Positions 20,064-37,312 of a stretch of DNA of 64,000 nucleotides are shown here, one piece after another. The translations under genes were made by a program, and so were the position numbers. The notes under the pieces were generated by a model. That model was not told where the DNA came from and did not search any database. It saw only the letters and a program-made list of their open reading frames with translations. The stretch's first letter is position 1, and every line of letters begins with the position of its first letter. Source of the stretch: Giardia intestinalis (Eukaryota); NCBI GenBank assembly GCA_000002435.2, contig CM018793.1; one strand, 5' to 3'.

Positions 20064-20213
20064 GCTGATGACTGGAACATCAGCAACTGGATAATACAGA
20101 CTGGAAGCAGGGTTGCGGCACTTCGTGTACTTCTTCGAGTTGAGGAGCTTGCGGATCTCGCCCAGGCACTTCTCGAGGGACTTGTTCAGCTGTTCCTCCG
20201 AGATCTCCGCCCC

Positions 20214-20768
20214 CTAGTCGATCCCCGAGCAGGAGAGGGAGTAGAACGCCTCGAAGAACGAGCGGAAGATGGCCATGTTGTGGCTCTTGACCTCGGCCTG
20301 CTGCGACTTCTTGGCCATCTCGGTGTAGGTGGCCGCGACCCTCTGCCGGAGCTGCTCCAGCATCGCCGCGTCCATCGTCTCGATGGTCTTCAGCCGGAGG
20401 ACCTTGGCCGCCTCGAACTGCTTCGCCCTGGAGGCGTGGTTGAGGGCGGAGAGCTTGCCGGCGTCCCGCAGCCTCCCCTCCTTCTCGAAAAGGGCCTGGA
20501 TCAGCTCGAGGTTCCCCCTCTTTGCCGCCGCGATCAGCGCGAAGGACCCGTCGTTCGAGACCAGGCCCGCCTCTGCGTCGACCAGCTCCAGGGCGACGGC
20601 GGTGTGCCCGGCTTCGGCGGCCCACATGAGCGCCGTCTTCCCGTCTGCGTCCCTCTGGCCTGCGTCCGCGGCCTTGTGGGCCCTGACGTAGTCCAGCCTG
20701 TTCTCCTTGGCCGCCTCAATAAATGCCATTCTTTGCTCCCCGTGCGATCGCGGCTCTTCATAAGACAT
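20214..20768 (-). CDS. Small ankyrin-repeat protein (Protein 21.1-like), 184 aa to the TAG. GC3 is nearly 100% and the ORF continues in frame beyond the TAG.
   Basis: Ankyrin repeats DGKTALMWAAEAGHTAVALELV and GSFALIAAAKRGNLELIQALF. ATG at 20766-20768. Nearly every codon ends in G or C. After TAG (20214-20216) the same frame reads GAEISEEQLNKSLEKCLGEIRKLLNSKKYTKCRN with the same GC3 bias down to about 20110. Confidence 0.6.
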   Translation of the reverse strand: MSYEEPRSHGEQRMAFIEAAKENRLDYVRAHKAADAGQRDADGKTALMWAAEAGHTAVALELVDAEAGLVSNDGSFALIAAAKRGNLELIQALFEKEGRLRDAGKLSALNHASRAKQFEAAKVLRLKTIETMDAAMLEQLRQRVAATYTEMAKKSQQAEVKSHNMAIFRSFFEAFYSLSCSGID

Positions 20769-20888
20769 ATTGATAGAAAACTTGGAGGCGTTGTTTCATG
20801 GCACTTTGGCACGGCCAGAAGCATGGGGCGCTGGTCCGTAGGGCCTGTTCTCCAGGGCCTTCTGCTTCTCGTGAAGGGAACGACGGGT

Positions 20889-22982
20889 TTACTCGTGAGA
20901 TCGTGGAGCAGCTTGGTGATCGTTGCAGTCGTCGGCGCCCGGTGTACGGCTGTTCCTAAGGAAGGATGCTATCTCAGAGTAGCCATCATTCTCAAGCTCA
21001 CCAAAGAAGGATTCGTCAGACTTGTCTATTAGATGCCCCTCCTTTTCAAATAGCAGCTTCACTACCTCTAAGTGGCCATTTACCGCCCCACATTCAAGGG
21101 CAGTCATCTCCTCCATATTCTTTACACCCCCCTCCAGATCTACTAACAATTTTACTATTTCTACGTTTCCCGCAGAAGCCGCGTTCATAAGTGCAGTCGT
21201 TTCTGATCCGTCTCTCATACCCCCCTCCAGACCTACTAACAATTTTACTATTTCTACGTTTCCCACAGAAGCTGCAATCATAAGTGCAGTTACACCGAAT
21301 ATGTCTTGTGCACCACCGTCATATTTAATTACCAACTTTGCTGTCTCTATGCAACCGCGTATAGCCGCTCGCATAAGCCTTGTTCTGCCGAGTTTGTCGG
21401 TTGACTCAAGAATATTCGCAACAATTTCGTGCCTCGCCTCCCCCGCAATCATCAGAGCCGTGTTGCCTTCGCTGTCGATTAAGTCCCTCTCATATGGGAC
21501 TAGAACAGAGGCAGCTTCTGCATGACCCTCCTCTGCAATGATCATCAGAGCAGTGCGATTGTTGTTATTTCTTCTCCCATGTTCGTAAGGGGCGAGAATT
21601 TCAACTATCTCGGAGTGGTTGCAATGTGCGGCGTGCATGAGTGCAGTCCAGCCATTGTTGTCCTTGAGACCCTTCTCCTTCTCAACAAGCAGCTTGACAG
21701 GACCAATGTGCCCCTGCTGGGCCGCGTGCATGAGGGCCGTCATCTTCTGCTCGTCGCGCTGGCCGATACAATCTTCATCGTTGGCCAGGATCCGGATGGT
21801 CTCCATGTCATTCGTGTGTGCAGCGTATATCAGTTGAGGCAGCGTGGAGAGGTTGGTCTGGGAGTCAGCCCTGTTCATCTCACTACTAAATTTTGTGAAT
21901 CTATTCTCCAGTGCCTTAATCATGGCTAAATGTTTCTTGCATTGATATTCAAGCACGTCGATCCTGGCGGTCTTAAGTCGGGGCCCCTGTCCTAGGGCGT
22001 CGGCTCCACTTAACCTGTTCTCGAGGGCTGCCTCAAGAGCAGTGATCCTGGCATTAGTACTGTTCAAAGCAGTCTCCAAGGCGCTGCATTTGTCTTCTAG
22101 TGCCATATACCAATGCCCCAGCTCACCAACTGGGATGTCAGCCGCAGTGAGCGTCTCGTGCAGCTCCCTGGCTGTCAGTCTTTCCTTTGGCTCCAGCACG
22201 AATATCCTCTCCAGAACATTCTTTATGAAGCCATCAGCGACACCGCTCAGGTCCGGTGTCCACTCGTCAACGAAGACCTCTGCCGGCTCCTTGCCCCCCA
22301 AGAAGTTCGGTCTCCTCAAAGTTACTAGTTCATAAATGATGACCCCGAGGCTCCACACGTCGGAGGCGGGGCTGGTATCGTTGCGGAGGAGCACCTCGGG
22401 GGCCACGTATGCCATTATTCCTATGAGAGTGCTCCCGCTCCACAGGGCGTCCTTGCAGAGGCCGAAGTCGGCGATGACGAAGCGCTCTCCGTCTGCGCTG
22501 ATAAGGACATTGGCAGGCCTGAGATCACAGTGGACGAGGCCTCTAGTGTTTGCTCCATTGACGCTGTGGAGGTAGGCGAGGGCGGCAGCGACCTGCCTCA
22601 GGACGGAGAGAATCATAGCGATAGGGACGGGGATCTTCCTTCGTTTGTGCTCGGCGAGGAGGTGCTCAAGGGTCTTGTTATACCGGTCCGTGACGACGTA
22701 GATGAGGCCCTTGTACTCGATCACCTGATAGTGCTTGAGAACTCCTATGTAGGAGAGGGTAAGGAGGACGGTCAATTTGGCTTTTGCGGCGTCTACACTG
22801 TCCTTGTCCAAGCCACTGAGCTGGATGACTTTTACAGCGAGACTCGGATAGTCCTTGAGAGAGTAGACTGTTCCCGCGGCACTTTCACTAAGCACATCAT
22901 CCAGCCCCTCGTAGAGCTCCCTGGGGGTGAACTGCGGGGCACTGAGAGCTGTTGTTGCAGGCTCAGACGAGGCAGCGTGCAT
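20889..22982 (-). CDS. NEK-like protein kinase (catalytic residues retained) with a coiled-coil linker and a C-terminal ankyrin-repeat array.
   Basis: AVKVI (beta3 Lys), HCDLRPANVL (catalytic loop), ADFGL, AYVAPE and DVWSLGVIIYE are all present. The coiled-coil is ALEDKCSALETALNSTNARITALEAALENRL. About eight or more TALM-type ankyrin repeats follow. An AT-rich tract (aaaataataaaa) abuts the ATG. Confidence 0.75.
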   Translation of the reverse strand: MHAASSEPATTALSAPQFTPRELYEGLDDVLSESAAGTVYSLKDYPSLAVKVIQLSGLDKDSVDAAKAKLTVLLTLSYIGVLKHYQVIEYKGLIYVVTDRYNKTLEHLLAEHKRRKIPVPIAMILSVLRQVAAALAYLHSVNGANTRGLVHCDLRPANVLISADGERFVIADFGLCKDALWSGSTLIGIMAYVAPEVLLRNDTSPASDVWSLGVIIYELVTLRRPNFLGGKEPAEVFVDEWTPDLSGVADGFIKNVLERIFVLEPKERLTARELHETLTAADIPVGELGHWYMALEDKCSALETALNSTNARITALEAALENRLSGADALGQGPRLKTARIDVLEYQCKKHLAMIKALENRFTKFSSEMNRADSQTNLSTLPQLIYAAHTNDMETIRILANDEDCIGQRDEQKMTALMHAAQQGHIGPVKLLVEKEKGLKDNNGWTALMHAAHCNHSEIVEILAPYEHGRRNNNNRTALMIIAEEGHAEAASVLVPYERDLIDSEGNTALMIAGEARHEIVANILESTDKLGRTRLMRAAIRGCIETAKLVIKYDGGAQDIFGVTALMIAASVGNVEIVKLLVGLEGGMRDGSETTALMNAASAGNVEIVKLLVDLEGGVKNMEEMTALECGAVNGHLEVVKLLFEKEGHLIDKSDESFFGELENDGYSEIASFLRNSRTPGADDCNDHQAAPRSHE

Positions 22983-23286
22983 CCTGGTTTTATTATTTTG
23001 GTAATCTGCCGTTTTGGAAACGGGCCGTTTTACATGGGTTCATATCTATAGGTCTACAGCAGTCCCGTGCCTGTATGGGCTTCTGTATCAGGGGCAAGAA
23101 GACCATCTGTGCAACCGTTTCACCCACCCCTGGCGCTCCAGTGCTGGCCGGGGGCGGAAGGACTGCTCCCCTGACCTCTGCGGAAACGGGCAGCTGTGTG
23201 ACCCACTGACGGCCACCACTTCATTAGTGTGTCTGTTCGCTGCATAGCTGGAGAGGCCCTAGTACACTATCGAATGCAATCAACAG

Positions 23287-31376: not shown

Positions 31377-34300
31377 CTACTTCAGTATGGAAAACTTGAG
31401 GCTTTGTGCCACATATGCCATGCACATTACACCGATGGGGGGTATCTTCATCAGTGCACACAAATCTACACCTTGACCATTAGCCGATGCGCGCCAGCCC
31501 ACGCGAATAAGCACCGGGAGGTTCTGCGGATATGCTGCAAGGGGGATGGACATGAGAAGAGAAACGTTAGTCGGCTGCATTTCCACGAGGTTGAAGTTTG
31601 CTCTTTTGGCCTTACGAACGATCACAGCAGCAACCTCATCAATGCTTGAAATCCCTAAGTTGGCGTATGTCAGCGACGAAGTATCCCTGTGAGCCAGGCT
31701 GTCCTGGACAAGGCCCCAGTTCTTGTTAAACTGCTGCACAGCTTGCGTAGGATTGATCAGGTTGCGGTCCGGGCCATGCATATTTGAGGTCTCTGAGGCC
31801 AAGACATGAATGGGTATCTTACATTGGAACTGACAGGGCCCTGGGGCACCATCGCACTTTATCGCGAACGTGAGAAGATTTAGATTGCCAGTACACTGAG
31901 GATCTGGCTGGCTAAGACGGGCTTGATTGAACTGCGTGTTGGGATCTTGCTTGAATTGCACGGGAACGAGAACAGGCTCCCCACCATTACTCTTCTGTCC
32001 AGGCTCCACGGAAGCTATTGAAAGCTGAGGAGAAACGGGAGAAATCCCAAGACCATTGGGTGCAAATCCGATCAACAAGTTGGTGAGTGGAGCAGAGCCC
32101 TTGTTGTGTACTGTTAGAAGAAGGAGAGGCTTTTGGTTCTCGCGAGTCCAGGAAATAGAGACCCCCATGACACCGTGATCGTTGACAACACGGATAGGGG
32201 CGTTCTGCACAGTGGCAAACGGATAGTCCGAAGAAAAGTAGGGCAGAGAAGCAGCGAGTAACTGAGTGCTTGTGGGGGGCGCGACGGGTGGAGAGGCAGC
32301 CGGAGGCATGACAAGCTCTGGCTTGTGCTCTGGAGCAGGTACCGCAGGCGTCTCCACTTTCGGAGTTATGAACGAAGCTGCATTGAAACTTGGCGCTGGC
32401 TCGGTGACCGGAGGTGCAGTCGGTGCAACCGGCGCGGCAGCGGGAACAGGCTCCGATGCCGCAATGGGACCCCCAATGAGCGATGCCAGCTTGTCAGGGG
32501 CTGGAGGCTGGGTAATCGGAGCTGCGGGGGTTGCAGAGCCATGACTAAGTAAATCTGTCACTGGAGCGCCAAAGGCGGGCAGATTGGTAGCAGGTTGGAC
32601 TTGTCTAACTGGTGCTGTTGGAAGAGTCACGTTAGGAATCGTGTGTGCAGAGGCGAATGCTGCAGGAAGAGCCGCCGCCTCTGATGTAGCAATGCTTGAG
32701 ATAGTAGTCTCGGCGGTCAGCGGAGGAGGAAGAGTACTGGAAAGTGTGTCTGTCTTCGCACCCACAATCTCGTCATAATTCACCTCCTGGATGTTAGTTC
32801 CAACCGCGTCCAGAATACGGATGGCCTCCTCAACGTCAGGGCCGCTATAAACGGTATCTGTGATCATCTCACGCATTACGCAAGAAACACTACCGAGCTC
32901 GCGTACGAGTGTAGCACGAATTGCATCAGGCATGCCATCCGTTATCTGTGGGGCAGCCTTCTGGGAGAAAAGCACCCCTTTAGCCGTCTGAAGAGTCGGG
33001 TCAACACCGAGGAGCCTCCAATAGAAGGAAGCGCGTTGACGAACGTCGGGTGATTCTGCTCTTTCCGTCGCCAATTGGAGCGTGTGCTGCAAGAGTCTCT
33101 GAGTATCAATGGTAGGTACATGGAGGAAAAGCTTGGTGCAAGAGGTGATAAACTGAAGCTGCACAACGGCAGGCTCATCCAGAAATGAACCCTTGAAGTT
33201 AGGATCATAGTCCTCCTCGGTTGCGGTTAAGATAGGCGACAGACCAACTAAATCCGAAATAACCTCCTCCGACCCCTCAATACGGTTGGCATACTCTCCG
33301 ATGATCCAAATGAGCGCAGCCTTTGCGTCAGGGTCATCGAGGGTAACGATGGTTTCACAGAGGATTCCAATGATGCCTTCATAACGCTCTGGGTATCGCC
33401 TGAAAATAAGCTGTGTGGCGACCATAAGCTCCTGAGCAGCATAGTCGGGAAACTTATAGTACTGGGTCTCTCGCTCGGATTCTCCTTCCTCGCCGCTTTG
33501 GCCTGTGATAAGCTTAACAAAGCGATGAACTGCTAGATCGGCCGCCGCAGGGACACGGATGGCAACCGTGCCCAGTGCACGGATGCTAGCCCGGACAAAC
33601 TGGGGGTCAACGTCTCTAGCATACTCAGAGAGCTCCATCACGACCTCCTGACAGTTCTGCGAGTCCGCCAGAAGGGCAAGCATCTCGATCTTCTCAAGCT
33701 TGATGTACAGAGGGTCGTTATACTTGACAAAGAAGAGACGGATCTGCTTACTAAAGGGATTCTCCTGCTCCTGGTTGATGAACGCAGACGCCACAAGTCT
33801 CAGGCAACGAAGAGCGATCCACTGTGACTCTGGGGACGTCGAAGAGCCAACGAAGGAGAGAAGGGGCCCAACACACATACCCTGCACCTTGTAGCACTGC
33901 TCTGTATTAAGGATGGGAGGGTCGGCGTAGATGTACTTGAGGACTAGGTTGATAGTGACAAGGCTGACAGCCGGGTTGTTGTGGCGAAGGAAGTTTGCTA
34001 AACGTTGAATGGTCGCATCTGCTTCTTCATAGTTCAGAGGCAGTTGTCCATAATTTGCAATTGCTGTTAAAATGTGCATTGCCGACCATTCAGTAGATGA
34101 TGTGAGGGCTGTCAAAAGGGCCTGAACCTCCTGCCAGTTGAATAGCATGCCGATGTCCTGGATACCAAAGATCCCGTAAAGCTGCTCCGGCGAGAGCTGA
34201 GTGGCCACGTTGACAAGAGACGAGGCGGCGGCGGCGACTACAGCCTGGTTTCCGTCTGAAAGAAGCTCCTTCAGAATCAGCAGCATATTCATTTGAATAA

Positions 34301-34775
34301 CCATCTCAGGAGAGATCCTATAGATCTTGGCAACAGCCGTGGCGGCGGTCTTACGAACAAAGGGATCTGCGTCACCAAGTGCCCGCCCAATAGCATTTGT
34401 AAAGACCTGTAAGGTCTCCTGGGTGCACAAGTTCCCCATAGTACGGATTGCAAGGGCACGAATAACAGCCTGCTCACGGTCTTGAGAGTCCATATCCAAG
34501 ACAGAGCCTACCTGCACGGGGGTGTCCGGATTCATCTTATGGTAGTTCAGGACGAAAAGGTATACGACTTTCTTGAGCTTTATATCCTTGGTTGCGGCAA
34601 AACGGCAAACAAGGGGAAAGATGCTGCTGACGTCGCGCCCGAGAGATAGCGCAGAAAGTATCTGGCCGACAACCTCGCGGTGATCCTCAACCTTGTTAGA
34701 GGTCTGCAATTTTTCAGACCAAAACTCCAGCTCCTCCTTTGCTGCATTCTTGTCCTTGGCCTTTGAGCGGCTCAT
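31377..34775 (-). CDS. AP-complex beta-adaptin (large beta subunit of the AP-1/AP-2 type). Start moved to the ATG at 34773-34775.
   Basis: GRDVSSIFPLVC, LKKVVYLFVLNY, IRALAIRTMG and DPFVRKTAATAVAKI match beta-adaptin GKDVSSLFPDVV, LKKLVYLYLMNY, IRALAVRTMG and DPYVRKTAAVCVAKL. A Pro/Ala-rich hinge and a C-terminal appendage-like region follow. The track start 34814 is TTG. Confidence 0.85.
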   Translation of the reverse strand: MSRSKAKDKNAAKEELEFWSEKLQTSNKVEDHREVVGQILSALSLGRDVSSIFPLVCRFAATKDIKLKKVVYLFVLNYHKMNPDTPVQVGSVLDMDSQDREQAVIRALAIRTMGNLCTQETLQVFTNAIGRALGDADPFVRKTAATAVAKIYRISPEMVIQMNMLLILKELLSDGNQAVVAAAASSLVNVATQLSPEQLYGIFGIQDIGMLFNWQEVQALLTALTSSTEWSAMHILTAIANYGQLPLNYEEADATIQRLANFLRHNNPAVSLVTINLVLKYIYADPPILNTEQCYKVQGMCVGPLLSFVGSSTSPESQWIALRCLRLVASAFINQEQENPFSKQIRLFFVKYNDPLYIKLEKIEMLALLADSQNCQEVVMELSEYARDVDPQFVRASIRALGTVAIRVPAAADLAVHRFVKLITGQSGEEGESERETQYYKFPDYAAQELMVATQLIFRRYPERYEGIIGILCETIVTLDDPDAKAALIWIIGEYANRIEGSEEVISDLVGLSPILTATEEDYDPNFKGSFLDEPAVVQLQFITSCTKLFLHVPTIDTQRLLQHTLQLATERAESPDVRQRASFYWRLLGVDPTLQTAKGVLFSQKAAPQITDGMPDAIRATLVRELGSVSCVMREMITDTVYSGPDVEEAIRILDAVGTNIQEVNYDEIVGAKTDTLSSTLPPPLTAETTISSIATSEAAALPAAFASAHTIPNVTLPTAPVRQVQPATNLPAFGAPVTDLLSHGSATPAAPITQPPAPDKLASLIGGPIAASEPVPAAAPVAPTAPPVTEPAPSFNAASFITPKVETPAVPAPEHKPELVMPPAASPPVAPPTSTQLLAASLPYFSSDYPFATVQNAPIRVVNDHGVMGVSISWTRENQKPLLLLTVHNKGSAPLTNLLIGFAPNGLGISPVSPQLSIASVEPGQKSNGGEPVLVPVQFKQDPNTQFNQARLSQPDPQCTGNLNLLTFAIKCDGAPGPCQFQCKIPIHVLASETSNMHGPDRNLINPTQAVQQFNKNWGLVQDSLAHRDTSSLTYANLGISSIDEVAAVIVRKAKRANFNLVEMQPTNVSLLMSIPLAAYPQNLPVLIRVGWRASANGQGVDLCALMKIPPIGVMCMAYVAQSLKFSILK

Positions 34776-37312
34776 TTTTTGTGGCGGTTTTAAATACTTT
34801 GACGAATACTCCAATTTTAGAAATCACAGGGCTGCTCGGGCGCTACACAAGAATCCCTGAGCAGCACTTGCAATCTGTTTCTATTGCTCTTTATGAAAAG
34901 CTAGCCCCTTTTTCTAAGTTTACAGAAGATAGGATACAAGATAAGATCTCTGAAATAGACAGCACCTTGTCTCCAGAGTTTAGGAGACTATGTGCAAAGC
35001 TCATCAAGTCTTCTAGTCAATCCAGAGAGGCTGGGCCCAGGGGATATAGTGACCATTATAGAGCTGTTTCTTCTCTTCTGCGGGACGAGCAGGCCACACA
35101 TCTTTCTATAAAGAAAAACCCCCTTCGCTCTTTATCCTTGAATTCAGCCCGAAAGTTCTTTTGTTCAAATGGGTTGAATGCGCTCAATTCATTTGCAAGG
35201 GGTCATTCAACTCTAATTAGAACAACTACAGAAGCAACAAAGACTAAGCAGCTGGCCAATCTACCAATTACCTTACGCGCCGAAGAACTTGTGCGTCTTT
35301 TAGAAGAAAACGATGTATTGATTGTTATTGCAGAGACAGGATCCGGAAAGTCCACCCAACTTCCACAGATTCTCTACTCGCACTTCGGGTCGAGTCTCTT
35401 TATGATGGTTACTCAGCCTCGCCGCGTTTCAGCAATATCTTTGGCTCGATACGTAGACAGATGCATGTCACCACATTGTCGTCATGGGACGGCAGCATAT
35501 TCTGTTCGCTTTGAAAGTACCGTTACTCCTCATACGCAAATTACATATGCCACAGAGGGGATTTTGCTTAGGATGCTCATAGATGCAATGAAAGGCGATG
35601 AAGGGGCGATAGACATAATCCGCAAATATACCGTCTTCCTGATTGATGAAGTACATGAGAAGACAATCAATTCATATATTATTTTGTTTCTCCTTTGCAT
35701 TTTCAAAGGGCCCAAGATCCTCATCTGCTCTGCAACTGCGGAGACGGAGGCATTAAAGAAATATGTGCAGCAATTGAGCAAGAGCGTAGCTGCACTACAT
35801 GTTTGTGGCAAGACCTTTCCGGTAAAAGAGGTCTATTACGAGGATTTATACCCATCTGCACTTACGGAGCTTAATAGTAGCTTCTTTGGCCCACAGGGCT
35901 TCCTTGAGAAATGCATATCAGTCGTCCAATACCTGATTGACAATCATGCACACACACCACTGGATGGTGCCACAGCAGGATCATACCTGGTATTTCTACC
36001 AGGGAAGCAAGAAATTCACACGGCCATTTCAATGCTCAATATGGCAGAACGTAACAAACAGAGAGATGGCTCAACATACAAACTACTCCTACTACAGTGT
36101 TACTCTGGGCTGCCTGATGGGTCTATCCAACTGCTCTTTGACGCGCCTCCACCGGGGACAATAAAAATTATTTTCGCTACGAATGTTGCAGAGACGTCCA
36201 TAACCATTCCAGATGTAACGGTTGTGGTGGACTCCGGCTACTGCAAACAAATGATGTTTGACACAGAGACAGGATACTATCGCTTGGTCACAAAACGGAT
36301 ATCGAAAGCTCAGGCAGTGCAAAGAAAGGGCCGTGCAGGACGCGTACAAAAGGGAGCTGTATATAGAGCGTACACGCGGGCTATATATGCATCTCTTGAA
36401 GCCCATATCGAGCCAGAGATACTCCGGTGCGACCTTTCGTCTTCCACCTTGGCGCTCCTAACAGCAGGCTTCAGAATTGAAGACTCCTGGCTCTTAGATA
36501 GACCACCCGTTACAGCTATGGAGGCAGCTTACAGATACCTATACTCCCTTGGAGCTATATCTGACTCCATGGCCCTGACACCAATAGGGATGTGTCTATC
36601 AAAAATACCCGAAGATCCTAGGTTGGGGTCTGTACTTTTTGAAGCAGCCTCTCGCGGAACTTTGACCCCATGCGCCAGAATTGCTGCTGCCCTCTCTGTG
36701 CTCCAGAATGAGCATAGTTTCTTAATCTCTACTGCCACAGGGCCACCGGAACAGCAAGGGATAACCTTTGGGGGCTCACAAGGTGATCACTTGCTTCTTT
36801 TAAAAATCCTGGATGCTTATGCTGAGCTGAAGAAAGACCGAATAATTAGAGAGGAGTGGGCCAGGAGACATAGGCTAAGAGAACAAAAGATAATTGAGGC
36901 TCTTCAACTGGCAGAGAAGTATATCGGCTTATTAGCTGCGCTGACTGAGGTGCCAAATCCAGGTACATCTAAATCATCATACGATCGGGCCCTTACCAGT
37001 ACAACAAGTGAGATCTTACTTCCTTTCATCAAAGCAGGGCTATATAACGTACTTAGGCGCAACAGCTCTGGCCCAAGTGTAACGTACAGTAGGCTAAGCA
37101 AAGAGGACAATTCAGAGGAGATTCTTATCCACCTGTCAAGCTGCTTAAGGAACAGTGCCAACAGGTTCATTATTTGCGAAACTATTCTCAGCACAACTGC
37201 TCTATATGCATGCGTCTGTAGTCCTGTATCTGCTAAGGCATTAGCAATGCTATTTCCACACATGCTAGAGGTATATCGCGAACACCCAAAAAAGTGTTCT
37301 ATCAAGTGCTAG
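34739..37312 (+). CDS. DEAH-box (DHX-family) RNA helicase. The translation start is unresolved: the track start is TTG and there is no in-frame ATG before motif I.
   Basis: Motif I IAETGSGKSTQLPQ, motif II LIDEVHE, motif III SATAETE, motif V FATNVAETSITIPDVTVVVDSG, motif VI QRKGRAGRVQKG, and a C-terminal HA2/OB-like region. From the in-frame stop at 34697-34699 to residue ~220 (LFMMV) there is no ATG. The 5' end overlaps the beta-adaptin 5' coding end by 37 nt. Confidence 0.75.
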   Translation: MLHSCPWPLSGSFFVAVLNTLTNTPILEITGLLGRYTRIPEQHLQSVSIALYEKLAPFSKFTEDRIQDKISEIDSTLSPEFRRLCAKLIKSSSQSREAGPRGYSDHYRAVSSLLRDEQATHLSIKKNPLRSLSLNSARKFFCSNGLNALNSFARGHSTLIRTTTEATKTKQLANLPITLRAEELVRLLEENDVLIVIAETGSGKSTQLPQILYSHFGSSLFMMVTQPRRVSAISLARYVDRCMSPHCRHGTAAYSVRFESTVTPHTQITYATEGILLRMLIDAMKGDEGAIDIIRKYTVFLIDEVHEKTINSYIILFLLCIFKGPKILICSATAETEALKKYVQQLSKSVAALHVCGKTFPVKEVYYEDLYPSALTELNSSFFGPQGFLEKCISVVQYLIDNHAHTPLDGATAGSYLVFLPGKQEIHTAISMLNMAERNKQRDGSTYKLLLLQCYSGLPDGSIQLLFDAPPPGTIKIIFATNVAETSITIPDVTVVVDSGYCKQMMFDTETGYYRLVTKRISKAQAVQRKGRAGRVQKGAVYRAYTRAIYASLEAHIEPEILRCDLSSSTLALLTAGFRIEDSWLLDRPPVTAMEAAYRYLYSLGAISDSMALTPIGMCLSKIPEDPRLGSVLFEAASRGTLTPCARIAAALSVLQNEHSFLISTATGPPEQQGITFGGSQGDHLLLLKILDAYAELKKDRIIREEWARRHRLREQKIIEALQLAEKYIGLLAALTEVPNPGTSKSSYDRALTSTTSEILLPFIKAGLYNVLRRNSSGPSVTYSRLSKEDNSEEILIHLSSCLRNSANRFIICETILSTTALYACVCSPVSAKALAMLFPHMLEVYREHPKKCSIKC

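Follow-up and report, generated by a model that had tools for sequence, protein, structure and literature searches.

A Giardia helicase gene without an ATG ahead of its ATP-binding motif: predicted translation from a near-cognate start codon

The helicase locus

We analysed a gene for a predicted DEAH-box helicase that lies in a stretch of 64,000 nucleotides (nt) of Giardia intestinalis DNA (contig CM018793.1 of GenBank assembly GCA_000002435.2; here called the window) and whose reading frame contains no ATG ahead of the ATP-binding motif I of the protein. On the plus strand, the frame in phase with position 34700 is open from a TAG at 34697-34699 through the stop codon at 37310-37312. The first ATG in this frame is found at 35402 and there is none between 34700 and 35402; the five intervening ATGs (34893, 34990, 35169, 35178 and 35313) are all out of frame and all run into stop codons. 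The in-frame ATG is doubled (35402-35407, encoding M208 and M209 in the context LF-MM-VTQPRR), and the WB and P15 annotations begin there. The distance from the upstream stop to the first in-frame ATG ranges from 1 to 46 codons in the ~25 real genes of the window, and the helicase gene, with 234 codons, is the sole outlier. The chance of encountering 206 Met-free codons amounts to ~0.7-1.6%.

An earlier note on this DNA, made from the sequence alone, had described the TAG that opens the frame, an open reading frame (ORF) that starts with the TTG at 34739, the ATG of a beta-adaptin gene on the other strand (34773-34775) and a Walker A motif at about 35330 with no in-frame ATG before it. All of these observations were confirmed. 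The first ATG does indeed follow motif I, but the residue number of ~220 that was given for it has to be replaced, as counting the codons of the open frame gives number 235 for this ATG, and counting from a GTG at 34781, as is done throughout here, gives number 208. The reported overlap with the 5' end of the beta-adaptin coding sequence exists only for the mechanical ORF of 857 amino acids (aa) from TTG 34739, and not for the conserved coding region, which starts at or after 34781. Including its stop codon, the full helicase coding sequence spans 34781-37312 (843 codons from GTG, or 837 from a TTG at 34799). The divergent beta-adaptin gene on the minus strand was recognised by its Adaptin_N domain match. 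The local gene order, with adaptin on the minus strand, the helicase on the plus strand, a NUDIX gene on the minus strand and a P-type ATPase gene on the plus strand, is kept across the retrieved loci.

For comparison we used five lineages: assemblage A (the window and a second isolate), P15 (assemblage E), assemblage B, and the lineages L002 and L003, which as a pair are probably the dog assemblages C and D. The amino acid identity to the helicase of the window is 84% in P15, 67% in assemblage B, 65% in L002 and 61% in L003.

The helicase protein contains the DEAD, Helicase_C, HA2 and OB_NTP_bind domains, with PF00271, PF04408 and PF07717 of Pfam scoring above the cut-offs and PF21010 slightly under. 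Its matches in the PDB are the DEAH helicases DHX8/Prp22, DHX16, DHX35 and Prp43 (E-values of ~1e-60 to 1e-72), and the homology to these solved helicases starts at residues 149-152, well before M208. Motif I (Walker A) reads AETGSGKST (residues 184-192; 35330-35356, plus strand), is conserved in all five lineages and pairs in the alignment with GETGSGKTT of DHX8. Motif II is the DEAH variant DEVH (residues 289-292; 35645-35656, plus strand), which is replaced by DEIH in L002 and L003, and D289, E290 and H292 are invariant or nearly so in an alignment of 33 sequences. The protein thus has the motif I, the DExH-type motif II and the C-terminal Helicase_C, HA2 and OB_NTP_bind domains of the DEAH/RHA-box SF2 helicases. 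With DHX8/Prp22, DHR2/DHX33, DHX35 and Prp43 it shares the succession of RecA1, RecA2, winged-helix/HA2 and OB-fold at 30-36% identity, but it differs from them by an additional N-terminal extension of ~150-180 aa and by having DEVH or DEIH as motif II. In the AlphaFold (AF2) model, which has a mean predicted local distance difference test score (pLDDT) of 78 and ~90 in the core, strand beta1 of RecA1 (179-184), the P-loop and helix alpha1 (190-205) are all located ahead of M208. Judged from this model, a product started at M208 could not bind ATP, as these three elements of RecA1 would be gone, and the view of the earlier note that a start after motif I would make a dead helicase was thereby borne out. 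Altogether, the gene is predicted to encode a functional full-length DEAH/RHA-type enzyme.

Within the OB-fold domain we also noted a Pro-to-Leu change in WB. Residue 785 (~37133-37135) lies in the sequence IHLSS in WB, where the other lineages of Giardia and almost every DEAH helicase have IHPSS; in the 33-sequence alignment, Pro785 is close to invariant. Other assemblage A isolates also have IHPSS (e.g. P0124, on 13 contigs).

Coding constraint ahead of M208 in five lineages

The region between codon 1 (34781) and motif I, which comprises 186-200 codons depending on the lineage, contains no in-frame stop in any of the five lineages, as compared to 8-21 stops in the other two frames. The probability that a frame of 186 codons stays open by chance is ~6.5e-5 per lineage. 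Insertions and deletions in this N-terminal region amount to 11 and 3 codons, and all of them are multiples of three. The ratio of nonsynonymous to synonymous divergence (dN/dS) is 0.20-0.44 in the N-terminal region, at a dS of ~1, and 0.06-0.15 in the helicase core. From the absence of stops, the multiples of three and the dN/dS values, it follows that the N-terminal region is translated and under purifying selection. Codons 1-183 (34781-35329, plus strand) therefore represent a coding, Giardia-specific N-terminal extension. Upstream of codon 1, an in-frame ATG is missing in all five lineages, and in the window, P15 and L002 no in-frame ATG is present anywhere between the upstream stop and codon 208.

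Beyond the G. duodenalis complex, no homologue of the N-terminal extension was found in an exhaustive HMMER search of 1.84 billion representative proteins, and a scan of metagenomes with N-terminal peptide patterns gave no match. A word-index protein search missed near-identical Giardia proteins, both for the N-terminal 184 aa and for beta-adaptin, and its negative results are not to be read as absence. The sequences P0127 and P0128 are C-terminal fragments and thus uninformative with regard to the 5' end.

The first 80 helicase codons (34781-35020) stand out by a synonymous divergence (pS) between assemblages A and E of 0.11, versus 0.39-0.46 further in, and their nucleotide conservation is also high. 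This low pS suggests a constraint at the DNA or RNA level, the source of which is probably the promoter of beta-adaptin, which would be contained in the coding sequence of the helicase. As a structure that might favour near-cognate initiation, we considered a 9-bp hairpin with a 15-nt loop (CUGCUCGGG ... CCUGAGCAG; 34832-34864, plus strand) inside the 5' coding region. This hairpin is kept in all five lineages, but with one-sided compatible changes only (C-G to U-G; G-U to A-U or G-C), no compensatory pairs and a fold z-score of -1.4, which makes it weak evidence for such a structure.

Candidate start codons and the initiator

The frame upstream of 34781 is not conserved. The start regions of the helicase and beta-adaptin genes are separated by a spacer (34776-34780 in the window) of 5, 6 or 7 nt depending on the lineage (T5 in assemblage A, L002 and L003; T6 in P15; T6A in assemblage B), and in P15 no more than 5 codons of open frame precede 34781. 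A start at the TTG at 34739-34741, as in the database entry ESU39119, was rejected because of this lack of conservation of the helicase frame upstream of 34781. In codons 6-10, the substitutions are of the coding type, with synonymous third-position changes and spared second positions. The only near-cognate codons within codons 1-9 are GTG1 (34781), TTG7 (34799) and ACG8 (34802), all three of which are located inside a block of 24 nt (34781-34804) that is near-invariant among the lineages. GTG is conserved in four of the five lineages, with ATG in the fifth, and both TTG and ACG are conserved in all five.

The first candidate start codon is the GTG at 34781-34783 (codon 1, plus strand). This codon is GTG in assemblage A (11 assemblies and the window), in assemblage E, in assemblage B (3 assemblies or isolates) and in L002, and it is ATG in L003, as observed in three independent samples. 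The published rooted phylogeny unites assemblages C and D in one clade and places A+E together with B. Because of this phylogeny, parsimony would make GTG the ancestral codon and the ATG of L003 a later gain; the root state of the start codon thus depends on the published clade of C and D plus parsimony. If codon 1 were irrelevant to translation, the chance of finding an in-frame ATG in L003 is estimated at ~0.06, based on two L003 substitutions in an 11-nt block where 1 of the 33 possible changes creates an in-frame ATG. A start at GUG 34781 would yield a protein of 843 aa beginning with M-AVLNTLTNT, for which the predicted N-terminal peptide is (M)AVLNTLTNTPILEITGLLGR.

The second candidate is the TTG at 34799-34801 (codon 7), which is followed by the ACG of codon 8 (34799-34804 together, plus strand) and which is invariant in all lineages. 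The mapping of transcription start sites in Giardia revealed an AT-rich initiator of 11 nt of which the central A is the start, for example ATTTTAAAATG or CTTTTAAAAAT (Tolba et al. 2013, PMC3792122); this paper includes no per-gene table that covers the present locus. With a weight matrix derived from the table in that paper, a match to the initiator consensus, GTTTTAAATAC, was identified at 34787-34797, with a predicted plus-strand start at A34792. Across the five lineages, this element is either unchanged or an even better match. Its core score of 7.0 corresponds to the 99.9th percentile of the window and beats the best near-ATG initiator of 20 of the 26 real genes. Transcription from A34792 would place a 7-nt leader ahead of UUG 34799 and would leave out GTG 34781. 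A core promoter is therefore recognisable for TTG 34799, and not for GTG 34781. The mirror image of the initiator on the minus strand, TATTTAAAACC, is located 16 nt upstream of the beta-adaptin ATG and is probably the initiator of beta-adaptin. As the element is nearly palindromic, its presence is to be expected under either start model. The start-to-start spacing between TTG 34799 and the beta-adaptin ATG is 23 nt, and that of the seven other divergent gene pairs in the window is 25-205 nt. In a position weight matrix of the start context, built from the window's own 26 genes, which are few, TTG scored -0.16, the median of the real starts, and GTG scored -9.8, which is below all 26. Initiation at UUG 34799 would give a protein of 837 aa that begins with M-TNTPILEIT and has (M)TNTPILEITGLLGR as its predicted N-terminal peptide.

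A second, very strong initiator match was observed inside the helicase coding region at 34814-34824, with ATTTTAGAAAT on the plus strand (99.98th percentile) and ATTTCTAAAAT on the minus strand. It is present in assemblages A and E, and may serve as an internal start site specific to certain lineages or as a distal start site of beta-adaptin.

Non-AUG initiation and its alternatives

We consider it likely, with a probability of roughly 0.85, that translation of the helicase starts at a near-cognate non-AUG codon inside 34781-34804, without splicing, editing or any correction of the sequence, and thus that the option of non-AUG initiation raised by the earlier note is to be upheld. No in-frame AUG can yield a functional product, because M208 lies after motif I. 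Within the block, a start at GUG is a tentative proposal, and a start at UUG or the adjacent ACG is equally tentative; the two have about the same likelihood and cannot be separated by sequence alone. Both GUG and UUG may be used if transcription starts at several sites. Giardia leaders are ~1-10 nt long, and translation is optimal with a one-nucleotide leader. On the helicase gene, transcription would begin within the short AT-rich initiator and leave a leader of ~1-10 nt, nearness to the cap would be what mainly picks the start codon, and the initiator tRNA would decode a GUG or UUG in this cap-near position as Met. A near-cognate codon could serve as start because, as we infer, the start on such mRNAs is set mainly by the distance from the cap; the identity of the codon in use and its decoding as Met are likewise deduced. 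It also seems quite probable that a near-cognate GUG or UUG has been the sole start of this gene, which looks essential and is maintained by selection, since before the G. duodenalis assemblages diverged, and that one lineage later gained or regained an ATG.

Conserved near-cognate codons that act as obligate sole starts, with no functional AUG alternative, occur in EIF4G2/NAT1/DAP5 (GUG) and in the Candida albicans P2A gene (GUG). The respective mRNAs have long leaders that are scanned, and their starts have been experimentally proven. The Giardia helicase would resemble these genes in its conserved near-cognate codons and the lack of a functional AUG product, whereas its leader would be only ~0-8 nt long, selection by cap proximity is presumed, and its start is a predicted one. 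In yeast, GRS1 (UUG) and ALA1 (ACG) have near-cognate initiators that are decoded as Met and that give rise to an isoform with an N-terminal extension beside an AUG-initiated one. Unlike in these two cases, the AUG-initiated product of the Giardia helicase would be non-functional. Compared with other Giardia short-leader mRNAs (Li & Wang 2004; Tolba et al. 2013, PMC3792122), GTTTTAAATAC fits the initiator and a leader of 7 nt is typical, but a TTG takes the place of the ATG expected at the start.

Several points weigh against a near-cognate start in the 34781-34804 block. The case for the start site is built on sequence, and GUG and UUG are backed by conflicting lines of evidence. GTG 34781 has no recognisable upstream initiator (its score of -4.5 is undercut by only 4 of the 26 real genes) and it is only 5 nt away from the beta-adaptin ATG. 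Conversely, if UUG were the start with transcription from 34792, the ATG of L003 would be a coincidence (~0.06). At the DNA level, codons 1-8 hardly vary, but they double as the beta-adaptin promoter, and their conservation can therefore not be read as coding constraint. The comparison is confined to the G. duodenalis complex. Lastly, no experimentally proven cellular non-AUG start in Giardia was found in the searchable literature.

Among the alternatives, the database annotation would be right if translation started at M208 (35402), yielding a helicase-like protein without motif I and leaving the upstream frame untranslated. WB and P15 are annotated in this way, and 35402 is the position of the first in-frame AUG. 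Nevertheless, we regard this explanation as highly improbable in view of the 207 upstream codons, which form an open frame subject to purifying selection in five lineages, the perfect conservation of motif I, and the deletion of beta1, the P-loop and alpha1 from RecA1 that it would entail. Furthermore, there is no initiator near 35402 (score -5.6), and a 600-nt leader with out-of-frame AUGs would be atypical of Giardia mRNAs. The possibility, considered in the earlier note, that orthologous proteins start at an internal Met with a non-canonical motif I does not match the data, as every lineage has retained an intact, conserved motif I and the upstream region is coding. A start slightly downstream of the block is unlikely as well. 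In this case, a transcript from ATTTTAGAAAT at 34814-34824 would be translated from AUC/AUA (codon 15, 34823) or CUG (codon 18, 34832). This would agree with the initiator score of 10.2 for this element in assemblages A and E (99.98th percentile), with the invariance of CUG18 and the purine at its -3 position in all lineages, and with the fact that the coding constraint on codons 1-13 falls short of proof. However, ATTTTAGAAAT is weakened in assemblage B and destroyed in L002 and L003 (TTGCGG), codons 6-13 substitute in a coding-like pattern, and CUG18 lies hidden within the conserved hairpin, in its 5' arm.

The two remaining explanations would restore an AUG. An assembly or sequencing error, by which the true ATG was lost or the frame displaced through an indel or a wrong base, is made conceivable by the out-of-frame ATG at 34893, which is adjacent to an A4 run and would be brought into frame by a change of 1 nt. 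Yet the first 700 nt of the gene show 100% identity between the window and ten independent assemblies from Sequence Read Archive (SRA) runs, and the ATG-less structure is also present in assemblages E, B and L002. A frameshifted start at 34893 was rejected, since this ATG is missing in L002 and L003 (TATAAC) and the conservation of the protein begins before 34893. With identical assemblies and a structure common to five diverged lineages, the frameshift or sequencing error proposed in the earlier note can be regarded as effectively excluded. The spliced 5' exon proposed there, in cis or in trans, would bring in an AUG as in Giardia HSP90, dynein heavy chains and p68 helicase, and it would suit a gene without AUG in an organism where the few trans-spliced genes include a different helicase. 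We consider it very unlikely on several grounds. In line with the failure of the earlier note to see Giardia-type intron signals, the interval 34300-35420 contains no GTATGT, CT[AG]AC...AG or ACACACAG motifs and no close match to the cleavage motif, and the strict Giardia 3' splice motif does not occur in the entire window. In L003, the same colinear ORF simply begins with an ordinary ATG, and no AG acceptor precedes the conserved coding region, save by chance in assemblage B. A transcriptome-wide search for trans-splicing detected five trans-spliced introns only (dynein heavy chain, HSP90 and p68), and the genes listed in a 2023 re-survey of 42 candidate Giardia introns do not include GL50803_13200, the locus to which we assign the helicase below. 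The finding of no splice junction for this gene was judged from such published genome-wide surveys.

There is 100% identity between the helicase encoded in the window and the WB entry XP_001708567/KAE8306061 (636 aa, beginning with MMVTQ), and the P15 entry EFO61351 (635 aa) has the same truncation and lacks motif I. As they start at an internal Met and miss motif I, the WB and P15 entries are mis-annotated. The GS entry (690 aa) begins at a lineage-specific Met, and ESU39119 (857 aa, 98% identical) and ESU43531 (880 aa) are non-ATG ORFs that run into antisense sequence of beta-adaptin. These five models would have to be changed to 843 aa (or 837 aa from TTG) in assemblages A and E, and to ~850 aa elsewhere. 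The helicase of the window is taken to be GL50803_13200, as this is the sole Giardia DEAH-box gene annotated without motif I. For this gene, an annotated ORF without motif I and an upstream region without ATG have been reported (Gargantini et al. 2012, BMC Microbiol 12:284, PMC3566956). That report proposed 'two putative alternative initiation codons', on which studies were then in progress, and showed by quantitative PCR that the gene is transcribed and strongly induced in encystation and antigenic variation (PMC3566956). The anomaly and the proposal of non-AUG initiation were thus already published in 2012 and are not new. GUG 34781 and UUG 34799 may well be the two codons meant at that time; no follow-up to the report was found in the literature. 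In contrast to the 2012 study, which included no comparative or promoter analysis (PMC3566956), the present work adds the conservation in five lineages, the dN/dS values, the evidence that the lack of an ATG is old and upheld by selection, the ATG variant of L003, the initiator match with the alternative start that it points to, the exclusion of error and splicing, and corrections of the gene models.

The 3' ends of the helicase gene and the convergent NUDIX gene share 4 nt (37309-37312) at the helicase stop, so that both called genes end at one position. This tail-to-tail overlap is kept in assemblages A, E and B, and not in L002 or L003. Elsewhere in the window, two long ATG-poor ORFs are located on opposite strands (20064-21032 on the plus strand and 20080-20715 on the minus strand), the former directly after the stop of the 18996-20063 gene and in frame with that gene. 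Their translations are of low complexity and rich in R, G, L and P. Situated between the 18996-20063 gene and a NEK-kinase/ankyrin gene at 20889-23039, both ORFs look spurious.

The present analysis has a practical use in the annotation of Giardia genomes and should interest specialists in translation initiation to a modest degree. If true, the predicted start would make this the first diplomonad gene for which an obligate non-AUG start is documented, and the gene would be a natural reporter of start recognition on near-leaderless capped mRNAs, where cap position may prevail over codon identity with a minimal initiation apparatus. It is a matter of speculation whether weak initiation might contribute to the regulation of a helicase that is induced in encystation and antigenic variation. 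If confirmed, the helicase gene would be one of the rare eukaryotic genes that rely wholly on a non-AUG start, and it would offer a simple natural test of start-codon stringency in the absence of scanning.

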